Shown in pieces: positions 1,840-18,965 of a stretch of 19,822 nucleotides of DNA; within the stretch, counting starts at the first letter, position 1, and the number at the start of each line of letters is the position of its first letter. The translations under genes and the position numbers were made by a program. The DNA is from Candidatus Helarchaeota archaeon (GTDB taxonomy: Archaea; Asgardarchaeota; Lokiarchaeia; Helarchaeales; RDOG01). The stretch covers positions 1 through 19,822 of the forward strand of contig JALGVI010000054.1 of NCBI GenBank assembly GCA_029838215.1. Direction: 5' to 3'. Below the pieces are notes generated by a model. That model was not told where the DNA came from. It saw only the letters and a program-made list of their open reading frames with translations, and searched no databases.

Positions 1840-3234
1840 ATGAATCAATCTGGATTTGACGCATTAATTGTCGGTGGAGGCGTTGGCGGTACTGCCATCG
1901 GAGCTCTACTTGCAAGTAGTGGTAAAAAAGTTGCACTTTTTGAAAAGAATAAAATCATTGGAGGACGGTGCCTGAGTTATGAACATCAAGGATTTTTGGT
2001 AGATCTCGGGGTTCATTTATTCGGGGTCGGAGATAAGGGATATATTGGTGATGTTCTCCGAAAGATCAACCGTCCAACGGCTTTAGAGTGGGTCATTTCG
2101 AAGGATCCTCGTCCGACGATGTTCTACAACGGTAAAATGGAAGTTTATAGTCGCAAGAACATGAGTGCGGCAATGGGGACCAGCAAAGAAGATTTCGAAT
2201 TAGCAATGAAATTCTTTACAGATTGTCTCTCCATGCGTAAAAAACAAATCAAGGAACTTTATTACACGGGATTGACAGATTTTATAAACAAGTATTCAAC
2301 AAACCCAACCCTTCACGTGTTTGTCGCCATGATTGCTGCTCAATATTTCTGCACGGATCCCCGAGTCACTTCAGCAGGGGAATTCATACGGTGTTTTCGC
2401 CAAGTCGTGAATTCGAAATCTTCTGCCTACCCTAAAGGTGCTTGCATCGCCATTCCCAAAGCATTCCAACAAGCCATCGAAGATAACGGGGGCAAAATCC
2501 ATCTTGATACAACTGTGAAAAAAATCATCGTTGAGAATGGACGGGCAATAGGAATTGAACTCAAGGATGGGACAACTCTAAATGCAAAAATAATTATAAG
2601 TAACGCAGATATTCAAAATACGGTTCAGAACTTGGTCGGGGAAGAGCACTTTCCAGAAGATTACGTTAAACGCGTGAAGAACTTAACATACGCAACACAT
2701 TGCTTGGCACTTAAAGTAGGGCTGGATGAAAAAGTAACCGATCAAAAACTAATCATGTACGTTAGAGAATCATTAAGCGACCCTGCCGCCATTCAAGAAA
2801 CCACGACTATAGACATGAAATCCGTGCGGGGAGGAATGATCACTTCGCCAACGAATTATGATGAAAAATTGGCACCCGCAGGAAATCAATTGATCTTTTT
2901 CGGTACTGCATGTCCAGGTGGTCGACCTGAAGAAGAATACAAAAAATTTGGTGAGAAATGCTATGAGGCTCTCCTTCAAGTCATACCCACAATTGAAGAC
3001 CATGTCTTATGGAAAAAAGTAGATTCTCCTAACTTGATAGAAGCATATGCTGGAGAATATGGCAATATTATTGGCGTTGGGCAGACAATTGATCAAATTG
3101 CGGAAAGACGACCATCCCAAAAATCACCCATTGAGGGTCTCTATATTGTCGGCGCAGAGGCGGGAGGACACGGTATCGGGGCTGAACTTGCGGCAAATTC
3201 CGCCATGGAACTATTCGAAATGCTTCAAAAATAA
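1840..3234 (+). CDS. Phytoene dehydrogenase-like (COG1233) FAD-dependent oxidoreductase
   Basis: ALIVGGGVGG Rossmann motif, EKNKIIGGRC, DLGVHLF, YPKGAC..IPKAF, V.KIIVENGRAIGIEL, IISNAD and a C-terminal PIEGLYIVG..AGGHG. All are typical of the CrtI/all-trans-retinol saturase-like family. Confidence 0.85.
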   Translation: MNQSGFDALIVGGGVGGTAIGALLASSGKKVALFEKNKIIGGRCLSYEHQGFLVDLGVHLFGVGDKGYIGDVLRKINRPTALEWVISKDPRPTMFYNGKMEVYSRKNMSAAMGTSKEDFELAMKFFTDCLSMRKKQIKELYYTGLTDFINKYSTNPTLHVFVAMIAAQYFCTDPRVTSAGEFIRCFRQVVNSKSSAYPKGACIAIPKAFQQAIEDNGGKIHLDTTVKKIIVENGRAIGIELKDGTTLNAKIIISNADIQNTVQNLVGEEHFPEDYVKRVKNLTYATHCLALKVGLDEKVTDQKLIMYVRESLSDPAAIQETTTIDMKSVRGGMITSPTNYDEKLAPAGNQLIFFGTACPGGRPEEEYKKFGEKCYEALLQVIPTIEDHVLWKKVDSPNLIEAYAGEYGNIIGVGQTIDQIAERRPSQKSPIEGLYIVGAEAGGHGIGAELAANSAMELFEMLQK

Positions 3235-3621: not shown

Positions 3622-4377
3622 ATGATCTACGATTTCTATATTCTCGAACGGTCTGGAACGTGCATTTTTCACCAAGCATTTTCTGCACTTGATCGAAAGC
3701 AAGTCGAAGCTGATTTGATTTCGGGGTTTTTTTCTGCCATGTGTTTATTTTCGCGTGAAATTGCTGACAAGCATTTGGAAATCTTAGAATTGGAAGACGT
3801 TCGATTGGTCTTTACTGAAGATAAACTTGATAATCAAGAATACATATTTGTTGCTTTTGTCGATGAAAATGAAAGTGTCTTGCAAATTCAGGACATATTA
3901 AAGAAAATTTCGAAAAAATTCTTTCAAAACTACAAGCATATCTTGAAAAATTGGAATAGAGATACCGAGATTTTTACCGATTTCCAAAAACAAATCGAAC
4001 TGATCATCATCAAGGCAGATATTGACCGATTCATGTTAATAGAAAAATTGGAAGAGATAGTCAAGATTGAACAGCAAACACACCTTGAAGGACTTTCCAT
4101 ATATACTAGCAAAGGAGACCTCATGATTTCGAATATAGAGTTACCATCACCTCTTAAAAAATTCATTTCAAGAACCATTGAGTGTCAATTCAAGACATCC
4201 GTAAAAATTGATGAATTATTTTTCAAGTACGAGACGAAGTACATACTGATTAGACCAATAACCAATTCCCTAGTGGGCGTTTTTCTCACAGCACCGAAGA
4301 CACCCTTCAAACTTGGAATTTCACTTGCTGACAACTTGGTTAAAATCCTCAAGGAAAAAATTCAAGTCGCTCAATAA
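3622..4377 (+). CDS. Longin-like domain fused to a C-terminal roadblock/profilin-like domain (Asgard eukaryotic signature protein)
   Basis: Residues ~1-130 (MIYDFYILERSGTCIFHQAF...DLISGFFSAM..F..EI....LEILELEDVRLVF....YIFVAFVD) follow the longin/sigma-adaptin-like pattern. Residues ~138-250 (LEGLSIYTSKGDLMISNI...LFFKYETKYILIRPI...LVGVFLT....KLGISL) follow the roadblock/LAMTOR-like pattern. Confidence 0.7.
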   Translation: MIYDFYILERSGTCIFHQAFSALDRKQVEADLISGFFSAMCLFSREIADKHLEILELEDVRLVFTEDKLDNQEYIFVAFVDENESVLQIQDILKKISKKFFQNYKHILKNWNRDTEIFTDFQKQIELIIIKADIDRFMLIEKLEEIVKIEQQTHLEGLSIYTSKGDLMISNIELPSPLKKFISRTIECQFKTSVKIDELFFKYETKYILIRPITNSLVGVFLTAPKTPFKLGISLADNLVKILKEKIQVAQ

Positions 4378-9642: not shown

Positions 9643-10994
9643 ATCATTTCAAGCGGGTACTGTATATAATCATCGACGACGTTAGAAATGACCATCTACA
9701 CCAATTAATGAATGATGGAACGCTTCCTACACTACAGAAACTCTCTGAAAATGCCGCCGACGTGGAGCATTGCATTACGACCTTTCCTTCCGTCACGGTC
9801 CCTGCACACGTTTCCTTGCTAACAGGTGCATATGTCGATTCATTTCACATACCGAACATTAAATTCTATCAAAGAGAAAACGCCAAATACGTTAATTTTG
9901 CAGATAGCATTCAAGGATGGATGGCCCTGGATGAAATGATCCCTCCTGATGTAAAGACTATCTATGAATTGTTTGAAAACGAAGATTCTTTGGTAGTTTA
10001 TGAAGGCGTGTCAAGAGGGGCGACATTTCATTATGGATTTCAGGATGCCACGAATCTGTTTCGCCCAATCTCTAAAATTTTAAAAAAACACGTCCAAGAA
10101 CATGAGAACTCACTCCCCACGGTTTCCGTGCTTTGGTATTATCAAACAGATCCTGCAGTTCATACTCATGGTGCCCATTCCCGAACCTATCTACGGGAAA
10201 TTAAAAAGGTGGACCGAGATCTGGGCAAGATCATCGACCTGTTAAAAGAAATACGCCAATACGATGATACCCTTATTGTCATCACGTCAGATCACGGTAA
10301 TTATGCGGCACGAGAAAAATTAGACGTTGGTCAACTATTACAAAAATATGGATTAGAGCGTGATGTCGATTTTTTCGTGGATTTCGGTTCCGTTGGTCTA
10401 TTTTGGTTCACGACCGGTCCTGATCCAAGTCGCCCTCTTCGTCTTGCCGAGTTAAGAAAAAATGGCTCTAATAGTATAGATTTAATCAAAATCATCGGTT
10501 CGTTGAAGGGAATCGAACGGCTTTTTTACTATGATGAGAAAACAGGATTAATACACGGCTTTTTTGATGGAAAGGAAGGAACGATTGCCTGGAAGAATGG
10601 CAAAACGAGCATTGCAGGCGATGACATTTTCGAATATTCCGAAGATTCGCTGGCGAGTGGAATTAAAAAAGGAATTTTTTATGATTCTGATGAATGGCTA
10701 AAATACACCTACAAGTCCAAATTACCTCTTCTACCCGATCACTTGGCACGGCTCTTTCATAATAGGAATCGTCCCGACATCATAGCATGTACCGATCGGA
10801 AAACCGTATACCATCACTTATATTCTCATGACACGTACACGCAAGAATCAATGAACGTGCCGTTATTGCTTGCGGGGTCAAAGATGGTACCAAAGAAATT
10901 AAAGCATGCTCGAACCGTGGATGTTTTGCCCACGATCCTGCATTTATTGGGACGCGATGTTCCTGCTAACATGATCGGAAAGCCATTATTATAA
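9639..10994 (+). CDS. Alkaline phosphatase-superfamily nucleotide pyrophosphatase/phosphodiesterase (NPP type I)
   Basis: IIIDDVR metal Asp, TTFPSVTVPAHVSLLTG Thr nucleophile, TDPAVHTHG, ITSDHG, YSHD and RTVDVLPTILHLLG. It overlaps the previous stop through ATGA. Confidence 0.85.
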   Translation: MNHFKRVLYIIIDDVRNDHLHQLMNDGTLPTLQKLSENAADVEHCITTFPSVTVPAHVSLLTGAYVDSFHIPNIKFYQRENAKYVNFADSIQGWMALDEMIPPDVKTIYELFENEDSLVVYEGVSRGATFHYGFQDATNLFRPISKILKKHVQEHENSLPTVSVLWYYQTDPAVHTHGAHSRTYLREIKKVDRDLGKIIDLLKEIRQYDDTLIVITSDHGNYAAREKLDVGQLLQKYGLERDVDFFVDFGSVGLFWFTTGPDPSRPLRLAELRKNGSNSIDLIKIIGSLKGIERLFYYDEKTGLIHGFFDGKEGTIAWKNGKTSIAGDDIFEYSEDSLASGIKKGIFYDSDEWLKYTYKSKLPLLPDHLARLFHNRNRPDIIACTDRKTVYHHLYSHDTYTQESMNVPLLLAGSKMVPKKLKHARTVDVLPTILHLLGRDVPANMIGKPLL

Positions 10995-12155
10995 TAAGCC
11001 TAGCATCCCACTAATTCCCGCACGTGGCGTTTCAATGGCACCTTGTGGACAGCCCTCGGCACAACACAGACAATTGATGCAAGTTTGTCGATGAATTTTT
11101 GGATATTTATTGATGTCGAATGAAATGCTTTCTGTAGGACAAATTTTTATGCAATGACCGCATTTAATGCATTTATTCTGGCGGACTCGCGGGACGCGCT
11201 TTAACATTCGGTTGCCAATCGGCTGAAAAATCCCCAATGCCGACATCACTCTTGTCCCTGGAAAATTGATTTTCTGTTTGGGAATTATATTTTCGATTTT
11301 TTCTCCCAATATGTTTATCTGCTGCAAGTTTCCGATGCCCAATCCGCGGTCATGACATTCCCTGATAAATTTTATGTCCTCAAGTGGATTTAGACCGCCT
11401 ATTTTAACTGCAACGGCATCCAAGGCAACCATATCCCGAGAAGCAAGGATCAGTCCCAAGTTTATCATGCTTCCAAAGCTCGGGCCACCAGTTCCGTGCA
11501 TGGCTTGAATTGCATCCATTATGACAAGATTGTCCTTTTTTAAAACATCATGAACATAGCTAAATAAATCTGTTAGAACAATTGCAAACTTATTGGGGGT
11601 CGGACCATAAAGATGGCTCTTGCTCTTTGTCGTGCCTACTTGAATCCCCCAAAAATTCTTTACTGCTCCAGTGAATCGCGTGAGAAAGTGCGTCTTCCAC
11701 TTGCAAGCATTTATCACAAAATCTGCATCAACAAAGGCACGAGCGATCGCCGTTTTTTCGAGAAGCTTGAAATTTGGATTATCATCCTTCGTCACCAATA
11801 CAGGATTTTCATTAAAGTTTATCCATTTAACATCAGGCGCAAGCTCCGAGATAATATCGTAACCCGTTTGTCCTCCATCATACCTGACTTTTTCATATAT
11901 CTCCTTACTTGTTTTTCCTCCAGACATGGGTGAGTCTCCTATTATAGGTTGTCCTCCGTATTCAACGACAAGCCGTGCAATACTGCCGATCACTGAAGCA
12001 TCGGTAACGGCATTCCGATCGGCATTTAGGTTGTTCGGCTTGATCAAGACTTGCTTATTTTTTAAATCAACATCACCCAACAAGGTCACGGCTTTTCTGA
12101 TGGCTTCAAAAACGGATTCTTCCGCCCCTTTTTTTACAATAGAAACTGACGGCAA
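10989..12155 (-). CDS. DUF362 family protein with C-terminal 2x[4Fe-4S] ferredoxin domain
   Basis: VLIKPN, IIGDSP, VINACKWKTH..T.FTGAVKNFWG, VIMDAI.AM.G.GGP, ASRDMVALDAV, then CIKCGHCIKICP and CINCLCCAEGCP. Confidence 0.9.
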   Translation of the reverse strand: MPSVSIVKKGAEESVFEAIRKAVTLLGDVDLKNKQVLIKPNNLNADRNAVTDASVIGSIARLVVEYGGQPIIGDSPMSGGKTSKEIYEKVRYDGGQTGYDIISELAPDVKWINFNENPVLVTKDDNPNFKLLEKTAIARAFVDADFVINACKWKTHFLTRFTGAVKNFWGIQVGTTKSKSHLYGPTPNKFAIVLTDLFSYVHDVLKKDNLVIMDAIQAMHGTGGPSFGSMINLGLILASRDMVALDAVAVKIGGLNPLEDIKFIRECHDRGLGIGNLQQINILGEKIENIIPKQKINFPGTRVMSALGIFQPIGNRMLKRVPRVRQNKCIKCGHCIKICPTESISFDINKYPKIHRQTCINCLCCAEGCPQGAIETPRAGISGMLGLL

Positions 12156-12325: not shown

Positions 12326-12574
12326 TTACCTGAACTTCAAATACAGATTCAAAGCCTCTTTTCTCATGACGTTCAGGTCAGCGTCATCGTTGGAAACAAA
12401 CAACTCCTTACGACCGTTTCTTTTCAGATCAAATGGTGCTTTTAGGGTATATTGAAAACTATTTGTTAAAAACGTGATTGCATTAAAAGAGATCTTCCTG
12501 TTCAATAATCTCTTGTAAAGCAAGTCGTAAATTTCCGGTACATCTTCCTTGATGATAACGCGCCTTTTCACCAT
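12326..12574 (-). CDS. Small hypothetical protein (82 aa)
   Basis: The only ORF over 60 aa in a 640-nt gap. ATG at 12574 with GAAGGA upstream, and protein-like composition (MVKRRVIIKEDVPEIYDLLYKRLL...). No recognisable family. Confidence 0.55.
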   Translation of the reverse strand: MVKRRVIIKEDVPEIYDLLYKRLLNRKISFNAITFLTNSFQYTLKAPFDLKRNGRKELFVSNDDADLNVMRKEALNLYLKFR

Positions 12575-12732
12575 CAATTCCTTCGTGAAGTGCTAAATTA
12601 ACCGATACAAGAACTTGCATTTTAACATATAATAAAAATCGTAATACTGAGATATTATCGGTAAGATTTTAAGAAATGGAATTATAAATTTTCTAGTGGC
12701 AAATAAATATTAGGATAGGACCGAGAGTATCT

Positions 12733-12742
12733 TTTATATGAA
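12733..12742 (+). promoter_or_regulatory. Candidate TATA box (TTTATATGAA) for the GTPase-chaperonin operon
   Basis: 66 nt upstream of the ATG at 12799 and identical to the element at 3554-3563. Confidence 0.5.
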
Positions 12743-12798
12743 ATTAACTAAAAGGTGAAGGGATATCGGTCTGAAGATATGGCAGGACTTGATATTTG

Positions 12799-13704
12799 AT
12801 GAGCTTTTATGATGATTACGATTATCTCCTTAAAATCATCGTTGTAGGAGACGGTGCAGTAGGGAAAACAGCACTATCCGTGAGATTCACACAAGGGAAG
12901 TTTCAAGACGATTATAAGATGACAATCGGTGTTGATTTTGCTGTTAAGATGATGGATGTCGATGGAAAACGTATAAAATGTCAGATCTGGGATACGGGTG
13001 GTCAAGAACGCTTTTCGTATCTTCGTCCTCTTTATTATAGTGGCGCGGTAGGTGGACTTGTAGTTTTTGACAAGACGTATCGTCCGTCTTTCAACAATAT
13101 CCCAAAGTGGTTCCAAGAGGTACGTGATAATCGGGGTCCTGATATTCCTTTGGTTTTATGCGGTAATAAAGTTGATCTCCCAGATTGGCAAGTCGATACG
13201 CAAGAGGCCGTCAACTTAGGTCGTTCTTACAAGGCACCTTATCATGATGTTTCAGCAAAGTCAGGTCAATCCGTAGATGATGCATTTGTAACATTGGTGA
13301 AGATGGTCATAGATCCGGGTGTTGCGAGGACGATACTCGAGGAAAAGACGACCCGTGATGTAGCAGAACAATCGATTGTAATGTCAGAAAGTTACAATAA
13401 GTATAATAGTTTTGCAAATCAAGCAACGGCTTATCTTGAGGCAGGAAATGTTATAGAGGCTTTGAATTCACTCAAGAAGTCTCTTTATTGGGCTCGCGAT
13501 GTTCAATTTGAACCAGGCATTAAATGGTGTGAGGACCAGATTGCTTACATTCAGAAGTTTTTAAAGCAGGAGAAAGAGGCACAGCAGGTTCAACGAGTAA
13601 GTGAGTTTATTTACAGATGTCCCGGTTGCAACGTTTATTTTAAGGTCAATCAAGTGGGTCAATATACGTGTCCCGATTGTGGAAGTGTCTTAGAACGAAT
13701 ATGA
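12799..13704 (+). CDS. Rab-like small GTPase with C-terminal TPR-like helical hairpin and C4 zinc ribbon
   Basis: G1 GDGAVGKT, G2 MTIG, G3 WDTGGQ, G4 NKVD, G5 DVSAK. RabF-like IGVDF, KCQIW, RFSYL, YYSGA, LVVFDKT. ANQATAYLEAGNVIEALNSLKKSL is TPR-like. CPGC-x13-CPDC forms the zinc ribbon. Confidence 0.9.
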   Translation: MSFYDDYDYLLKIIVVGDGAVGKTALSVRFTQGKFQDDYKMTIGVDFAVKMMDVDGKRIKCQIWDTGGQERFSYLRPLYYSGAVGGLVVFDKTYRPSFNNIPKWFQEVRDNRGPDIPLVLCGNKVDLPDWQVDTQEAVNLGRSYKAPYHDVSAKSGQSVDDAFVTLVKMVIDPGVARTILEEKTTRDVAEQSIVMSESYNKYNSFANQATAYLEAGNVIEALNSLKKSLYWARDVQFEPGIKWCEDQIAYIQKFLKQEKEAQQVQRVSEFIYRCPGCNVYFKVNQVGQYTCPDCGSVLERI

Positions 13705-13761
13705 GTTCCTCTAGGTCGCCAACTAACAGATTTAACCTTGCCTTACCTTGAGGAGAGTATC

Positions 13762-14784
13762 ATGGAACTTTCTTCAGTCCTTAAGGGTGTTGTTTATTCA
13801 CAATTTGGAGAAATGGGACCTGAGGCTTATATTTGGTTTCCTCAGGATGGTACACTTGATTCTGCGATATTGGGCTTAGTAAGCTTGAAATCGATAACAA
13901 TTCTACAGGGTGAAGAAGGGCAAGTTCCGGAAGATGTTGCTGTTGTTCCTTTTCCTAAATATAGGATGAATTCTATCGTGAGTTTTTTTTCGCTTCCCGA
14001 TACTGAAGCTCGTGGCGGAGAGCGAGATGCGACGCTTTGTATTTTATTTTCGGACAAATTTTCAAGCATTATTTACAAGCATTTAGAATTATTCAAGGAA
14101 CAGATGAACACGATCTCAAAAGAAATAGTCAAACGAGAGATGGAAGGAGATTTGGCAGGAAGCACAGCATTAATTCAAGAATTCCATGCATCCTTATTGG
14201 AGAATTTGCGGAGCTTGCAAGAGGCTGAAGTAGAAGAACCAAAGAAAGCTGATTTCAAATATAAAGTGATCGTTGTTGGAGACCCTGCAGTTGGTAAGAC
14301 GACTTTACTCTTGAGATACGTGGATAATTGTTTTAAAGAAATCTACATTCCGACTGTCGGAGTTAATGTTAGTACGAAACAAGTTGATGTTGGAACTTCG
14401 AAAGGACAAAACATTAACGTGACATTAAATCTCTGGGATTTAGCAGGTCAAAAGAGTTTTCTGCACTTGCGAAGAATGTATCTTGAGGGCGCAAATGCCG
14501 CTATCATAGTATATGATAGCACGAGGTCTGAAACATTTCAAAACATAAAATCTTGGTTTGAGGAAGTGAATTCAGTCAATCCAAAGATTTTAGGATACAT
14601 AATTGGGAACAAGATCGACTTGTTGAAACAACGAAAGGTTTCAACGAAGCAAGGCAAGACTGTTGCAGATGATTTGGGTTTTAAATTTCTCGAAACAAGT
14701 GCTAAAACAGGAAAAAACATTCCCACTCTTTTCAAAGATATTTCACGATCGATTTTAACTAAATACAAAGCAATTGGTACTTGA
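13762..14784 (+). CDS. uDENN/longin-like domain fused to a C-terminal Rab-like small GTPase
   Basis: N-terminal VVYSQF.EMGP...WFP...FFSLPDTEARGGERDATLCILF. GTPase G1 GDPAVGKT, G2 IPTVG, G3 WDLAGQ, G4 NKID, G5 ETSAK. I chose the ATG at 13762 for the AGGAG SD at 13751. Confidence 0.8.
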   Translation: MELSSVLKGVVYSQFGEMGPEAYIWFPQDGTLDSAILGLVSLKSITILQGEEGQVPEDVAVVPFPKYRMNSIVSFFSLPDTEARGGERDATLCILFSDKFSSIIYKHLELFKEQMNTISKEIVKREMEGDLAGSTALIQEFHASLLENLRSLQEAEVEEPKKADFKYKVIVVGDPAVGKTTLLLRYVDNCFKEIYIPTVGVNVSTKQVDVGTSKGQNINVTLNLWDLAGQKSFLHLRRMYLEGANAAIIVYDSTRSETFQNIKSWFEEVNSVNPKILGYIIGNKIDLLKQRKVSTKQGKTVADDLGFKFLETSAKTGKNIPTLFKDISRSILTKYKAIGT

Positions 14785-14788
14785 TAAA

Positions 14789-16519
14789 ATGGAGTTGACT
14801 GGAAAACCATTCTTGATCATGAAAAAAACGACACGGCGGATGGTTGGTTCTGCAGCACAACGTTTTAACATATTAACGGCTTGCGTTATTGCAGAATTGA
14901 TTCGCACGACGCTGGGTCCATTTGGTTTTGATAAATTAATTATAGATCCCGTAAATGAGATTATCATCTCCAATGATGGCTCCACGATAATGAAAAATTT
15001 TGAAGTCCGTCATCCGATGGCTAGAATTCTCGATAAATTGGTTCGTTCAATGGACGATACTGTTGGAGATGGTTCAAAAACAGCCTTAATTCTTGTCGGT
15101 GAACTTTTAAAAAAGGCACAGATTCAACTCATGGATGAAGGCGTGCATCCTTCAAGCATAATTGATGGTTTTGAGAAAGTTCTTGAATTTTTCATTGAAG
15201 AATCAGAAAAAATTGGGATGACCATCAATCCAAATGACGATGTTCTACTAAAAAAAGTTGCATTAACATCCATTGGTGGACGATTCGGACCAAAGGTCGA
15301 AGAGAAACTCGCAAGCATTGCGCTTCAGGCAATCCGCTATATCTCCGAAGAAAAAGACGGACAACTTCGCATTGATGTTAAAAACAACATCAACATCGTT
15401 GCGGTACGCGGCAAAAGCTTGAGTGAATCAGAAGTTATTGACGGAATGGCGATTGTTAAAGAACTGGTATCTCCCGAGTTACCGAAAAGAATCGTGGATG
15501 CTCGGATTGCTTTAATTGAACCGTCAATTGAGCATAAATTGTTTAAAATAGCCGATTCAAAGAATGTTCACTTGAAAATGACGGGTATTGCCGAGCAAAG
15601 ACAATTTAGGGACGAAGAATATCGAATATTAAAGGAAAAAGTCGAAAAAATCATTCAATCTGGTGCTAACGTGGTTTTTGCCCGACGAGAACTCCATGAA
15701 AAAATTCGTCCTTACTTGCGAAAAGCCAATATCTTGGCAGCAAGTTGGGTTCGGGGTTGGGATATGGAGAAAATTGCGCGGGCAACAGGTGCCAAGATCA
15801 TCAAGAACCTCGATTATTTAACACCTGAAGCATTAGGACACGCAGAAATCGTGGAAGAACGCGAACTAGCGCATAAAAATATCATTTTTATTCGCGGATG
15901 CAAGAATCCAAAGGCTGTTACCATTTTGCTTAGGGCAGGAATCGAACACGTGCTTTACGAAAGTGAACGTCGCTTGTACGATGCCATGTATGCAATTCGG
16001 GACGTGCTTTTGAAGGGAAAAATCGTTGGTGGAGGAGGTGCTTTTGAAATGGCACTTTCTAAAAGAATCCTCGAATACTCCCGGCAATTCTCGGGACGTG
16101 AACAGCTCGCCATTCAGACTTTTGCTCGTTGCTTGGAAATCATACCATTTACTCTCGCAGAAAGTGCAGGTCTCAATCCATTGGATGTGATAACTCGGCT
16201 GCGCCAAATTCATACTTCTGATAACGAAAACGCTCAATGGTATGGCGTGGATTTGGAAAACACCCTGCCTAAAAACATGTTAGAAGCTGGAATATACGAT
16301 CCGCTTTCTGTCAAGATCCAAGCAATTGGTGCAGCAACTGAAGTTGCTCTCATCATTCTTAGCATTGATGATGTCTTACATGCAAAACCTGCGGAGTACG
16401 AAAAAACCATTGAAGAAGAAGAATATGAAGAGGAAATGAAACAAAAAATGGCAGACATCAAGGAGCAAATACTCAGATCTCGCTCACCAACGAGAAGATT
16501 TACCTCTCCTCGCAAGTAG
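14789..16519 (+). CDS. Divergent group II chaperonin (thermosome/CCT-like) subunit
   Basis: AQRFNI...IRTTLGPFGFDK, SNDGSTI, HPMAR, VGDGSKTA, VIDGMAI, DARIALI, IARATGA, GCKNPKAVTILLRAG, ERRLYDA, VGGGGAFE, LAESAGLNP, GIYDPLSVK.QAI..ATEVA..ILSIDD. The ATG at 14789 lies 4 nt after the previous stop. Confidence 0.9.
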   Translation: MELTGKPFLIMKKTTRRMVGSAAQRFNILTACVIAELIRTTLGPFGFDKLIIDPVNEIIISNDGSTIMKNFEVRHPMARILDKLVRSMDDTVGDGSKTALILVGELLKKAQIQLMDEGVHPSSIIDGFEKVLEFFIEESEKIGMTINPNDDVLLKKVALTSIGGRFGPKVEEKLASIALQAIRYISEEKDGQLRIDVKNNINIVAVRGKSLSESEVIDGMAIVKELVSPELPKRIVDARIALIEPSIEHKLFKIADSKNVHLKMTGIAEQRQFRDEEYRILKEKVEKIIQSGANVVFARRELHEKIRPYLRKANILAASWVRGWDMEKIARATGAKIIKNLDYLTPEALGHAEIVEERELAHKNIIFIRGCKNPKAVTILLRAGIEHVLYESERRLYDAMYAIRDVLLKGKIVGGGGAFEMALSKRILEYSRQFSGREQLAIQTFARCLEIIPFTLAESAGLNPLDVITRLRQIHTSDNENAQWYGVDLENTLPKNMLEAGIYDPLSVKIQAIGAATEVALIILSIDDVLHAKPAEYEKTIEEEEYEEEMKQKMADIKEQILRSRSPTRRFTSPRK

Positions 16520-16530
16520 GTGTGTCTTTA

Positions 16531-17370
16531 ATGAAATATGCAATTAGTAATTGGATATACGGTTCTGAACCGCTTAGTAAGTCAATTGAACGGTTAATCC
16601 GGTATGATTATGATGGAATCGAAATTAAAGGAACCCCAGAGGAATATGACCTAAACCAAGTAAAGGATTTATTGTCCACGACAAAACTAAAAGTATCTTC
16701 GGTTTGTGGCATGTGGCCGTGGGATGCAAATAATCACATGAATAGTCATGACCTTGCAAATCCCGATCCAAAAGTCCGTGATCACGCCTTGGAATATGTT
16801 GAAAGATGTCTGGAATTCGGTAATAGCTTGGGTGCAAAATGCATGGTCGTAGTAGTAGGTGGTTGTGGCAAGACGATGCAATTACATGAGAAAGAGTGGG
16901 AATACGGCGTTGAAAACGTGAAAAAAGCGGCAAAAAAAGCACGAGATACAGGAGTGACGATAGCTATCGAACCGATCAACCGCTATGAGCTCTTCCTAAT
17001 GAATAATGTCGAACAAGGCTTGAGATTCGTCCAAGAGGTAAATGCAGAATCGGTGAAATTAATGCTTGATACCTTTCACATGAATATTGAAGAGGCGGAT
17101 CTTCCTGCGGCAATCCGGAAGGCGTCATCATCTCTCGTGCATCTACACGTGGCAGATAGCAACCGGCAGTCTGTTGGGCGGGGACATATTGACTTTAAAG
17201 GAATAATGCGGTCCTTGAAAGAAATCGAATTCTCCGGATATTTAGCGATGGAACCCTTACCTCCAACTTCAGCAAATGTATACGATCTTTCGCAATTAAA
17301 TCCTCACCTTCTCGATCAATATGCCGAAGAATGCATCGCTCAACTCAGGTTTTTTGAGAAAACTATTTAA
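16531..17370 (+). CDS. Sugar phosphate isomerase/epimerase, D-psicose/D-tagatose 3-epimerase-like (TIM barrel)
   Basis: YDGIEI, AIEPINRYE, MLDTFHMNIEE, HLHVADSNR...GRGHIDF and YLAME, with the metal ligands E, D, H, E present. I chose the ATG at 16531 for the AGGTG SD overlapping the previous stop. Confidence 0.9.
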   Translation: MKYAISNWIYGSEPLSKSIERLIRYDYDGIEIKGTPEEYDLNQVKDLLSTTKLKVSSVCGMWPWDANNHMNSHDLANPDPKVRDHALEYVERCLEFGNSLGAKCMVVVVGGCGKTMQLHEKEWEYGVENVKKAAKKARDTGVTIAIEPINRYELFLMNNVEQGLRFVQEVNAESVKLMLDTFHMNIEEADLPAAIRKASSSLVHLHVADSNRQSVGRGHIDFKGIMRSLKEIEFSGYLAMEPLPPTSANVYDLSQLNPHLLDQYAEECIAQLRFFEKTI

Positions 17371-17380
17371 TTTTTATTTT
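17371..17380 (+). terminator. Candidate oligo-T terminator ending the GTPase-chaperonin-epimerase unit
   Basis: TTTTTATTTT directly after the TAA at 17370. Confidence 0.3.
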
Positions 17381-17507
17381 GATCGAATTTTTACATGAAA
17401 ATTAACTTCTCCCATCATCTCCAATTCATTTCTTCTTTAATAACCTGAGACATCGCTGTAAATTACAAGATAATTGAAAATGAAAGAAATAATCGGTCAT
17501 TGATCAA

Positions 17508-18965
17508 ATGGAAGAATACAAAAAGTTATATGGTTTTGCAGTCAAGGAATACAAGGAAAAGAAGCCAAAGAACATTCAAGGTTATATGATCAAGAAAAGA
17601 AGTATTTTTTCGAAGGGTTTTTCGCCTTCTTTTCAATTACAATCCCAATTAACCCTTCAGATTTCATATTTAATCATCGTGAACTATGGCTCTACCGTTC
17701 GCGTGTATTATTTTTCTTCCGAATTACTTCAATTAGGGGCAAAAAATCTGAATTCTAAAGAATTCATGAAGATGATGAAAAAAATCAAAAAATCTGTTAA
17801 AAAAATCTTCGAAGTCCCGCATAAGACGAAAGAACAATTGATAGAGGAAAAACGCACGGCATATTCTAAGATAATTTCCCATCTAAAGCATCTACGTTTG
17901 GACTTCAAGGAATTGCAGGAAAAATTCGATCGAGAACATAAGGCGATTCGAAAAAAAACAGGCTTGAAAGGAAAATTGAAAACGGTCACTCTTACAGACA
18001 AAAAATTAACGAATATAAAACGATTTGGAGTAATGATAAAGGAAAGTTACCTATATATATCACTTTATTGTTTGAATTCGAAATATCTCAATATTATAGT
18101 CTTTCGAGAAATAATTCTCTCATTACTACCAGGCTGGATCGATGATTCGTTAAAAATTGACCTTGCATTTTTAGGCACCTGCTGCCTGATATCAGCTACT
18201 GAACGTGATTTGCTCCTTGAAAAATGGTCGCCACCGGGTGATCCAAATTTGATCCGTATGCTTGATGGAGAAAAACTCGTTCCAATAATTGGCTTTCTTG
18301 CATATCTCAATAAATATATTGACATACCATCACTTACTGAAGAAGAAACCAAAATATTATTTAGATTAATGCTTGAGGAACATTCTCGTGGACACGCATG
18401 GATGGCAGAACGCTTTTTTTCTAATCTCGTCCCAGATAATGAAATAACTCGCGATATCTTTATTGCAAAGCGGCTGCTTTTTAGATTTTTAAGTGGAGAA
18501 CATGTAGAAGCAAATCAAATTAAATTTGGGACTTTCAGCAAGCCGTGTCTATCCTTAGCCACGCGAAAATTATTCGATTTTTATGAAACCTATCAAAGAT
18601 TAGAAAAGATTCCAAGAGGGTTGAATCATCTCATCCAAGACGTGTTGAAAAAGATAAATCCTGTCCAAATAACTAGGAATTTCACTCGAAAAGACAAATC
18701 GTGGATAGAATTATCAATTATAATTTCAAATAATTCCGACTTGATTCTTGCTCCAAAAAAAATTAGAGATTCAAGCTATTCAGGACTTGACGTCAAGGGA
18801 GATTTAAATTTCAAAAAACTCTATCCCGAATCAGTCATGGAGTTAAAAATTCAAGTAAATTTACCAGAAGGGCAAAGTTTTACTCTTTCCCCAATTCAAC
18901 TAACATTGATTGATGATTTTAAAAATGAATATCACGTCAAGGTTCCATCCATGATGATTCATTAA
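17508..18965 (+). CDS. Hypothetical multidomain protein: basic N-terminal region, helical core, C-terminal Ig-like beta-sandwich
   Basis: 485 aa uninterrupted ORF. The last ~98 aa (ITRNF...IELSIIISNNSD...KIRD...KKLYPESVMELKIQV...FTLSPIQLTLIDDFKNEY) have the alternating pattern of DUF11/CARDB/TRAP-beta-like Ig folds. No signal peptide or TM helix is evident. Confidence 0.65.
   Translation: MEEYKKLYGFAVKEYKEKKPKNIQGYMIKKRSIFSKGFSPSFQLQSQLTLQISYLIIVNYGSTVRVYYFSSELLQLGAKNLNSKEFMKMMKKIKKSVKKIFEVPHKTKEQLIEEKRTAYSKIISHLKHLRLDFKELQEKFDREHKAIRKKTGLKGKLKTVTLTDKKLTNIKRFGVMIKESYLYISLYCLNSKYLNIIVFREIILSLLPGWIDDSLKIDLAFLGTCCLISATERDLLLEKWSPPGDPNLIRMLDGEKLVPIIGFLAYLNKYIDIPSLTEEETKILFRLMLEEHSRGHAWMAERFFSNLVPDNEITRDIFIAKRLLFRFLSGEHVEANQIKFGTFSKPCLSLATRKLFDFYETYQRLEKIPRGLNHLIQDVLKKINPVQITRNFTRKDKSWIELSIIISNNSDLILAPKKIRDSSYSGLDVKGDLNFKKLYPESVMELKIQVNLPEGQSFTLSPIQLTLIDDFKNEYHVKVPSMMIH

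Follow-up and report, generated by a model that had tools for sequence, protein, structure and literature searches.

The window analysed here is a 19,822-nt stretch of DNA from a Candidatus Helarchaeota archaeon, contig C143 (JALGVI010000054.1) of a 3.6 Mb, 94%-complete genome (GCA_029838215.1). Its positions 12799-17370 hold four genes, all on the + strand: g1 (12799..13704), encoding a Rab-like small GTPase extended by a three-helix module and a zinc ribbon; g2 (13762-14784), in which an N-terminal folliculin/SMCR8-type longin domain (13762..14229) is fused to a C-terminal Rab-like GTPase domain (14263..14784); g3 (14789..16519), a divergent paralog of the group II chaperonin (thermosome); and g4 (16531..17370), a xylose-isomerase-like TIM-barrel sugar isomerase/epimerase. 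The linkage of the GTPase genes to the chaperonin gene is the subject of this report. The open reading frames (ORFs) of g2, g3 and g4 open at TTG 13738, TTG 14774 and GTG 16522, respectively; the start of g2 is placed at the ATG at 13762 because this position is favoured by alignment with 17 paralogs. An earlier note on this DNA, made from the sequence alone, had described four co-oriented genes separated by 57, 4 and 11 nt, and with ATG starts these gaps are exact. The Shine-Dalgarno (SD)-like sites that it placed before the second and fourth genes were found as well (GAGGAG, 6 nt 5' of the g2 ATG; AGGTG, 9 nt 5' of the g4 ATG), while a search for such a site before g3 revealed none. By co-orientation and short gaps, the four genes of the window have the layout of an operon.

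The product of g1 (301 aa) matches the Ras family (PF00071) with 183.9 bits over residues 12-170, and its best matches in the PDB are Sec4, Rab8A and Rab1A (E ~1e-40). The second G domain of the cluster, that of g2, gives 166.2 bits with the same family; its closest PDB entries are Rab21 and Rab1A (E ~1e-34), Rab structures match it with Z scores of 22-24, and it scores 166 bits as Ras/Rab versus 24.5 as Gtr1/RagA and 57 as Arf. The G1-G5 motifs (GxxxxGKT, T, DxxGQ, NKxD and SAK) are present in both domains, intact in g2 including the switch II Gln, and the earlier assignment of both GTPases as Rab-like holds. Neither protein ends in a Cys prenylation motif of the CC, CXC or CAAX type (g1 ends ...VLERI after the ribbon, g2 ends ...KAIGT), as is expected for archaea. 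Behind its G domain, g1 carries a tail of ~100 conserved residues modelled as three helices, followed by a CxxC...CxxC zinc ribbon at 13612-13701. Identification of the three-helix module as a TPR or MIT domain was rejected, as the fold matches reached only Z 10-11, below the informative level for helices. Orthologs of g1 are 67-83% identical. The tail was detected in six of seven Helarchaeales species genomes and in none of 31 genomes of family f4, and by these sequence searches it is found only within the order among the genomes searched, one marginal match (E 7e-4) in family f5 aside. A scan of metagenome contigs with the g1 ortholog alignment returned as its sole match an unrelated GTPase at 29% identity; a word-indexed protein search with the tail returned three clusters and missed the known orthologs at loci L079 and L081, and thus has little bearing on distribution.

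The g2 protein (340 aa from the ATG) consists of an N-terminal domain of ~160 aa followed by the G domain. The N-terminal domain matches Folliculin-N (PF11704) with 25.4-26.2 bits against a cut-off of 23.3, with 14 of 18 paralogs matching, and its AlphaFold2 model (predicted local distance difference test score 85.9) follows the longin order strand-strand-helix-strand-strand-strand-helix-helix. Its best structural match outside the GTPases is the longin of 8yqg (Z 19.0, root-mean-square deviation 2.5 Å over 145 residues; profile E 2e-14); sequence match and fold together place it among the folliculin-type longins. A GP motif (13816-13821) occupies the loop between strands 1 and 2, where G27 is invariant and P28 is kept in at least 90% of 18 paralogs, and the Arg of the ARGG loop (R92, 14011-14013), between strands 4 and 5, is kept in 16 of the 18. 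R92 may be the counterpart of the folliculin Arg finger, which would predict a GTPase-activating protein (GAP) role for the domain. The earlier note had called this region DENN-like. The longin, which corresponds to the uDENN-like part, bears out one half of that description; the other half fails, as the longin helices end at ~residue 164 and the GTPase begins at residue 173, leaving no room for a core DENN or dDENN domain, and identification of g2 as a DENN module was therefore rejected. Longin-GTPases of this type are abundant: each of the 41 class-level genomes searched has full-length matches to g2, the longin profile matches ~246 representative clusters, most of them 336-360 aa in length, and the window genome itself has five copies of the g2-type longin domain and ~50 Ras-like loci. 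The same profile search also returned many proteins of 280-290 aa with a C-terminal longin.

The g3 protein (576 aa) aligns with Cpn60_TCP1 (PF00118) over profile positions 1-490 (476.5 bits) and scores 533 bits against the thermosome alpha model NF041082, the cut-off of which is 450; the CCT subunit models reach at most 365 bits. Full-length architecture and equivalog score identify g3 as a group II chaperonin; among the four encoded in the genome it has diverged furthest. The description of this chaperonin as atypical in the earlier note is correct for the P-loop, which reads GDGSKT (15065-15082) where the canonical form is GDGTT[T/S]. The NDG motif, the hydrolysis Asp (YDAM) and GGGGAFE are retained. 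The C-terminal tail is acidic and then basic, as opposed to Gly/Met-rich in the canonical copies, and the lid region has diverged (13% identity to the canonical consensus at residues 241-270).

A quick maximum-likelihood tree of the chaperonins, with branch support from the Shimodaira-Hasegawa-like approximate likelihood ratio test (SH-aLRT), places g3 and its 75% identical relative P0002 as sister to P0009-P0013 (support 95). With P0003-P0008 these sequences form a 13-member clade (support 100) nested in a 25-sequence clade (support 99) in which the P-loop has Lys in place of the second Thr and mostly reads GDG[S/T]KT. Three sub-clades are distinguished below: A, comprising the window and L073; B, the sister lineage, comprising L079, L080, L081, L119 and ENA contig ERZ23498365; and C, the third. 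P0009-P0013, on a long branch, carry N or H in place of the NDG Asp, have replaced the second Gly of GDG and have lost the hydrolysis Asp (HDAL to NNAL). They are intact ORFs of 554-556 aa in five assemblies, the gene lying at 8001-9665/9671 in L079, L080, L081 and L119. These residues suggest that P0009-P0013 may be pseudo-ATPase chaperonins, and since the chaperonin of the sister sub-clade has been kept intact despite the substituted catalytic residues, its sequence points to some function besides bulk folding powered by ATP.

The order Rab, longin-GTPase(s), chaperonin is conserved on all seven flank-bearing contigs of the sister sub-clades A (two) and B (five). In sub-clade A it reads Rab, longin-GTPase, chaperonin, epimerase; on the five contigs of sub-clade B it reads DUF362(-), small ORF(-), Rab, longin-GTPase A, longin-GTPase B, chaperonin. 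At the junction between longin-GTPase and chaperonin, the window, L079 and L081 each have a gap of 4 nt, and L119 and ERZ23498365 one of 1-4 nt; overall the gap measures 1-4 nt on six of the seven contigs, with 70 nt in L073. This spacing spans considerable sequence divergence, as identity between A and B is 53-55% for the chaperonin (53-75% across the two sub-clades together), 49% for DUF362, 67% for g1 and ~40% for g2. Rearrangement breakpoints lie directly 3' of the chaperonin and upstream of DUF362, and none falls within the trio. As a control, the surroundings of the three canonical chaperonin genes of the window genome (contigs C115 and C112) were free of Ras-like matches out to 12 kb. 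The adjacency that the earlier note proposed for Asgard genomes thus exists on seven contigs of two sister sub-clades, where the gene orders compared mark the trio as a derived feature common to A and B, and was not found in the third sub-clade or in the other Helarchaeales genomes searched.

On the contigs of sub-clade C, where the trio adjacency was not found, the chaperonin is preceded by a divergent winged-helix gene and by proteasome alpha and beta genes. On one of these contigs, L074, four longin-GTPase genes lie no more than 7 kb from the chaperonin; the closest one clusters with the sub-clade B copies that adjoin the chaperonin (SH-aLRT 99). Three candidate GTPase neighbours were rejected: the gene that precedes the L075 chaperonin (324 aa) encodes a leucine-rich-repeat protein; the 214-aa ORF truncated at the contig end in L120 looks like a TnpB/OrfB-type transposase; and the longin-GTPase 4.4 kb from a chaperonin in G005 is regarded as a coincidence, lying on the opposite strand with a GH31 glycosidase and a nitroreductase between. 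A second conserved GTPase cluster within the order was observed, a four-gene longin-GTPase array shared, with one-to-one orthology and in mirrored orientation, by L070 (G001:C1:26000-40000) and L074:907-5520; three of its ortholog pairs have SH-aLRT values of 98, 100 and 93, and the fourth pair is not resolved. Genes for methyl/alkyl-coenzyme M reductase alpha, beta and gamma lie within 4-8 kb of the third-sub-clade chaperonin (L074:17680-17701, L120:6789-10802), which fits alkane-oxidising Helarchaeota. In L075 (1-6319; GCA_019058355.1), a called gene of 12,788 residues, without a Pfam match, ends ~1.7 kb upstream of the chaperonin.

The conservation described above is open to two readings that are about equally probable, each falling somewhat short of an even chance. 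The one we tentatively prefer is that longin-GTPase and chaperonin paralog share a transcript and are coupled in function, forming a lineage-specific module of one Helarchaeales sub-group. The other, which has much the same claim to acceptance, is that the synteny is inherited without a functional link, g3 being the fourth thermosome subunit of a general hetero-oligomer and co-transcription a matter of genome compaction. A series of observations weighs against coupling or speaks for inheritance. About 10 of 18 adjacencies at the L081 locus also occur in the window genome (~55% background synteny between the lineages), among them a block of six to seven functionally unrelated genes that begins at ribosomal protein S26e and ends at an aminotransferase; with background synteny this high, the two adjacencies kept within the trio could be simple inheritance and would be unsurprising alone. 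Metabolic neighbours (DUF362 and, further out, a phosphodiesterase) stay linked too, and the arrangement probably arose once, in which case the seven contigs are not independent. Five to six other Helarchaeales species genomes were searched, which include G001-G006, and neither these nor the other families of the order that were covered yielded the adjacency; no GTPase or chaperonin neighbours were found for the f2 and f3 chaperonins, the class-level third paralogs or the Rab-zinc-ribbon homologs of G001-G006. The clade with the variant P-loop is far wider than the clade with GTPase neighbours; Ras-like loci number ~50 per genome, and longin-GTPase paralogs are numerous class-wide. Moreover, g2 and its L073 ortholog join the chaperonin-adjacent copies of sub-clade B and the nearest L074 copy weakly (SH-aLRT 86-89), and g3 itself exceeds the thermosome-alpha cut-off (533 vs 450 bits) and keeps its catalytic Asp residues. 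The small GTPase genes of strain MK-D1 are generally not in operons with regulators (PMC10933270).

Three observations suggest more than inheritance. The spacing of 1-4 nt between longin-GTPase and chaperonin has persisted although chaperonin identity has fallen to ~53%; the trio is flanked by breakpoints and is not broken by any of them; and in sub-clade B the chaperonin has lost its hydrolysis residues and yet remains both intact and linked. Also counted in favour of coupling are the gene order kept on all seven contigs, the nearest longin-GTPase of L074, the changed P-loop, tail and lid of the chaperonin, the lack of Ras-like matches around the canonical chaperonin genes, the eukaryotic GTPase-CCT precedents and the longin motifs.

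If the genes are coupled, the pair g2-g3 appears to be the core of the module. The gap between the Rab and longin-GTPase genes is 57 nt in the window and 200-245 nt in L073 and the sister lineage. In the sister lineage the spacer (~240 nt) is poorly conserved apart from a perfectly conserved AT-rich 21-mer, ACATAAATTTTTTAAATTTTG (L079:5676-5693, L080:52-69, L081:5706-5723, L119:5774-5791). The 21-mer lies ~60-85 nt before the first longin-GTPase gene, is followed on its 3' side by an SD-like GGAG, and looks like an archaeal promoter element of the TATA/B recognition element (BRE) type; it is not present in the window. Its conservation at this position makes it likely that the co-transcribed core in the sister lineage is the longin-GTPase(s) plus the chaperonin, with Rab as a neighbour. 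The Rab gene of this lineage is probably transcribed alone, judging from the same element, which is a further point against a coupled trio. The single transcription unit proposed in the earlier note is consistent with the short gaps and shared orientation in the window, and is probably divided in the sister lineage, where the promoter-like element separates Rab from the remaining genes.

Upstream of g1, an AT-rich divergent intergenic region (12578..12798) is a putative promoter. The TATA-like box of the earlier note is present as TTTATAT, ~60 nt 5' of g1, in a region of 34.5% G+C; words of this type are frequent in so AT-rich a spacer, and alignment of the g1 upstream region with that of L073 showed poor conservation and no convincing shared promoter. 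On the other side of this region, and divergent from g1, lies a small ORF of 83 aa (12326..12577, - strand) with no family match, whose counterparts of 81-87 aa occupy the same position in both lineages (59% identity in L073, 30-34% in L079/L081). Beyond it, a gene for a DUF362 and 4Fe-4S protein, identified by Pfam (10989..12155, - strand), reads away from the cluster; it is also found upstream of the trio in L073, L079, L081, L119 and the ERZ23498365 contig, with 49-68% identity to these counterparts, and is part of the conserved block. The T-tract that had been reported after the last gene corresponds to T-runs following the g4 stop (17371..17400, + strand), a possible archaeal terminator.

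This divergent promoter region, which also serves DUF362 and the small ORF if it is active, is conserved in position, and this feature and the short gaps between co-oriented genes would also suit a stress or growth-state regulon (responding, for example, to heat or nutrient stress). In such a regulon the GTPases would be switches for signalling and g3 a thermosome subunit specific to stress, and the proteins would not touch one another directly. Archaeal thermosome paralogs often differ in expression with temperature, which counts in favour of such a regulon. The conserved block contains no heat-shock or regulator gene, however, and the chaperonin of the sister lineage, apparently unable to hydrolyse ATP, is a poor fit to a stress foldase; we consider this explanation unlikely.

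The fourth gene of the window matches AP_endonuc_2 (PF01261) with 145 bits, and its best equivalog is an IolO-type epimerase (182 bits, below the cut-off of 300), a score too low to assign a substrate. An epimerase follows the chaperonin in the window and L073, that is, in the window's own lineage only, and none is found in sub-clade B; g4 is for this reason likely a passenger, and the inclusion of the epimerase in the unit by the earlier note is not upheld. This bears on the system which that note had envisaged, a proto-trafficking unit consisting of a Rab switch, a DENN-type GAP or guanine nucleotide exchange factor (GEF) and a chaperonin that builds a coat-like complex in the manner of BBS6/10/12, with the epimerase included. 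The Rab-like domains and the folliculin-type longin are present, the ATP motif of g3 is altered, and chaperonin-assisted assembly of the BBSome does occur in eukaryotes (PMC3370246). On the other hand, g2 lacks a core DENN domain, conservation does not extend to the epimerase, and the thermosome score of g3 (533 bits) is far higher than its score with any CCT model (at most 365 bits). In the conserved block, which beyond the trio consists of DUF362 and the small ORF, none of the genes was recognised as coat-like, BBS-like or membrane-binding. The interpretation in the earlier note is borne out in part; its analogy to BBSome or coat assembly is unsupported, and we regard this explanation as very improbable, more so than the stress regulon; both fall far behind coupling and inherited synteny.

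Other features of the window and of the compared loci lie outside these arguments. On the 3' side of the epimerase, a 485-aa ORF (17508-18965, + strand) has no Pfam or NCBIfam match and is outside the conserved block, since L073 has a CDP-alcohol phosphatidyltransferase gene at that position. A 251-aa ORF (3622-4377, + strand) has no Pfam match. A flavin amine-oxidase-like protein of 464 aa (1840-3234, + strand) matches PF00996, the Rab GDP-dissociation-inhibitor family, weakly (26.0 bits, cut-off 23), which probably reflects merely a common FAD-binding fold. A TFIIB homolog is 91.6% identical between L081:10530-11465 and G000:C90:14175-15071, where most neighbours are 27-62% identical and a DUF169 gene 82%; it is either unusually conserved or recently exchanged.

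The data presented above have led us to propose a model for the coupled pair. The Rab-like GTPase g1, with its helical and zinc-ribbon tail, would adjoin a co-transcribed pair made up of the longin/Rab-like GTPase fusion g2 and, behind it, the specialised thermosome paralog g3. The longin of g2, by virtue of its GP motif and conserved Arg, would serve as a built-in dimerisation and GAP-type platform for Rab-like G domains, be it the one fused to it or the one in g1. The chaperonin g3, whose ATP P-loop is altered, would act either as an effector under the control of this switch or as a dedicated folding or assembly factor for multi-domain GTPases, and g4 would be carried along as a passenger. 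Gene order and spacing, domain identities, motif changes and the retention of the order in two sister lineages are observed, whereas co-transcription, GAP activity and a physical or regulatory link between GTPase and chaperonin are what we infer. The bolder statement, that a Helarchaeales sub-group evolved a dedicated GTPase-chaperonin module in which a specialised thermosome paralog, ATP-hydrolysis-dead in one lineage, is the effector or assembly partner of longin-bearing Rab-like GTPases, is doubtful as a whole.

Each component of the locus is of an already known kind. We found no paper linking a thermosome paralog to GTPases in Asgard archaea or describing a GTPase-chaperonin cluster in them; the GTPase-chaperonin linkage, and the chaperonin clade with a Lys-type P-loop and a catalytically degenerate branch, appear to be undescribed so far. 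Asgard archaea encode dozens of small GTPases together with longin and roadblock regulators, and their genome layout rarely pairs these GTPases with partners or effectors (PMC10933270), so that a conserved, tight longin-GTPase/chaperonin pair would give one concrete and testable pairing. The documented divergence of the thermosome paralog (ATP loop, charged tail, catalytic loss in one lineage) bears on the origin of the eight-subunit CCT and of the BBS chaperonin-like proteins. If the module is real, it would be an archaeal counterpart of the eukaryotic links of Rab and Rag GTPases to CCT and of the BBS chaperonin-like proteins, and an example of chaperonin subunit specialisation of the type that led to CCT; if the synteny is only inherited, the locus keeps its value as an annotated case of known Asgard families.

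Comparison with known systems places each gene among its relatives. Longin-GTPase fusions have been published for Asgard archaea (PMC10933270; 10.1101/2020.10.19.343400) and, like g2, combine an N-terminal longin with a small GTPase and occur as many paralogs per genome; the published fusions are mainly Rag- or Arf-like, whereas the G domain of g2 is of the Ras/Rab type. Longins that carry both a GP motif and an Arg finger have also been described in Asgard archaea and proposed to be GAP-like (PMC12290439). With these, and with the GAP longins of folliculin, SMCR8 and NPRL2 that they resemble, g2 shares the Folliculin-N match and the GP motif, and its conserved loop Arg is a putative counterpart of the Arg finger; it differs from folliculin, SMCR8 and NPRL2 in having no DENN or dDENN domain and no evident separate partner subunit, its longin lying in cis with the GTPase. 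The closest solved structure to its N-terminal domain, 8yqg, is a Roadblock-Longin protein of Lokiarchaeota with which it has a GPEP motif in common; in 8yqg the companion of the longin is a roadblock domain that precedes it, in place of a GTPase, and, unlike in g2, the aligned loop lacks the ARGG Arg.

The chaperonin g3 resembles archaeal thermosome subunits in its full-length Cpn60_TCP1 domain and in its thermosome-alpha score above the cut-off, and the four chaperonin paralogs of its genome recall the subunit diversification of the eukaryotic CCT paralogs. By NCBIfam scores it is no closer to any CCT subunit than to thermosomes, and it departs from both in its GDGSKT P-loop, charged tail, diverged lid and adjoining GTPase genes. 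Couplings of a small GTPase, or of a GTPase-regulated complex, to a group II chaperonin are known in eukaryotes: CCT has been reported as an effector of Rab2B in trypanosomes (10.1101/2024.11.27.625582), Drosophila provides a case of association between Rag GTPases and CCT (PMC12332402), and BBS6/10/12 provide a third such link (PMC3370246). These eukaryotic links come from experiments on proteins encoded by unlinked genes, whereas in the Helarchaeales sub-group described here what is observed is the adjacency of the GTPase and chaperonin genes.

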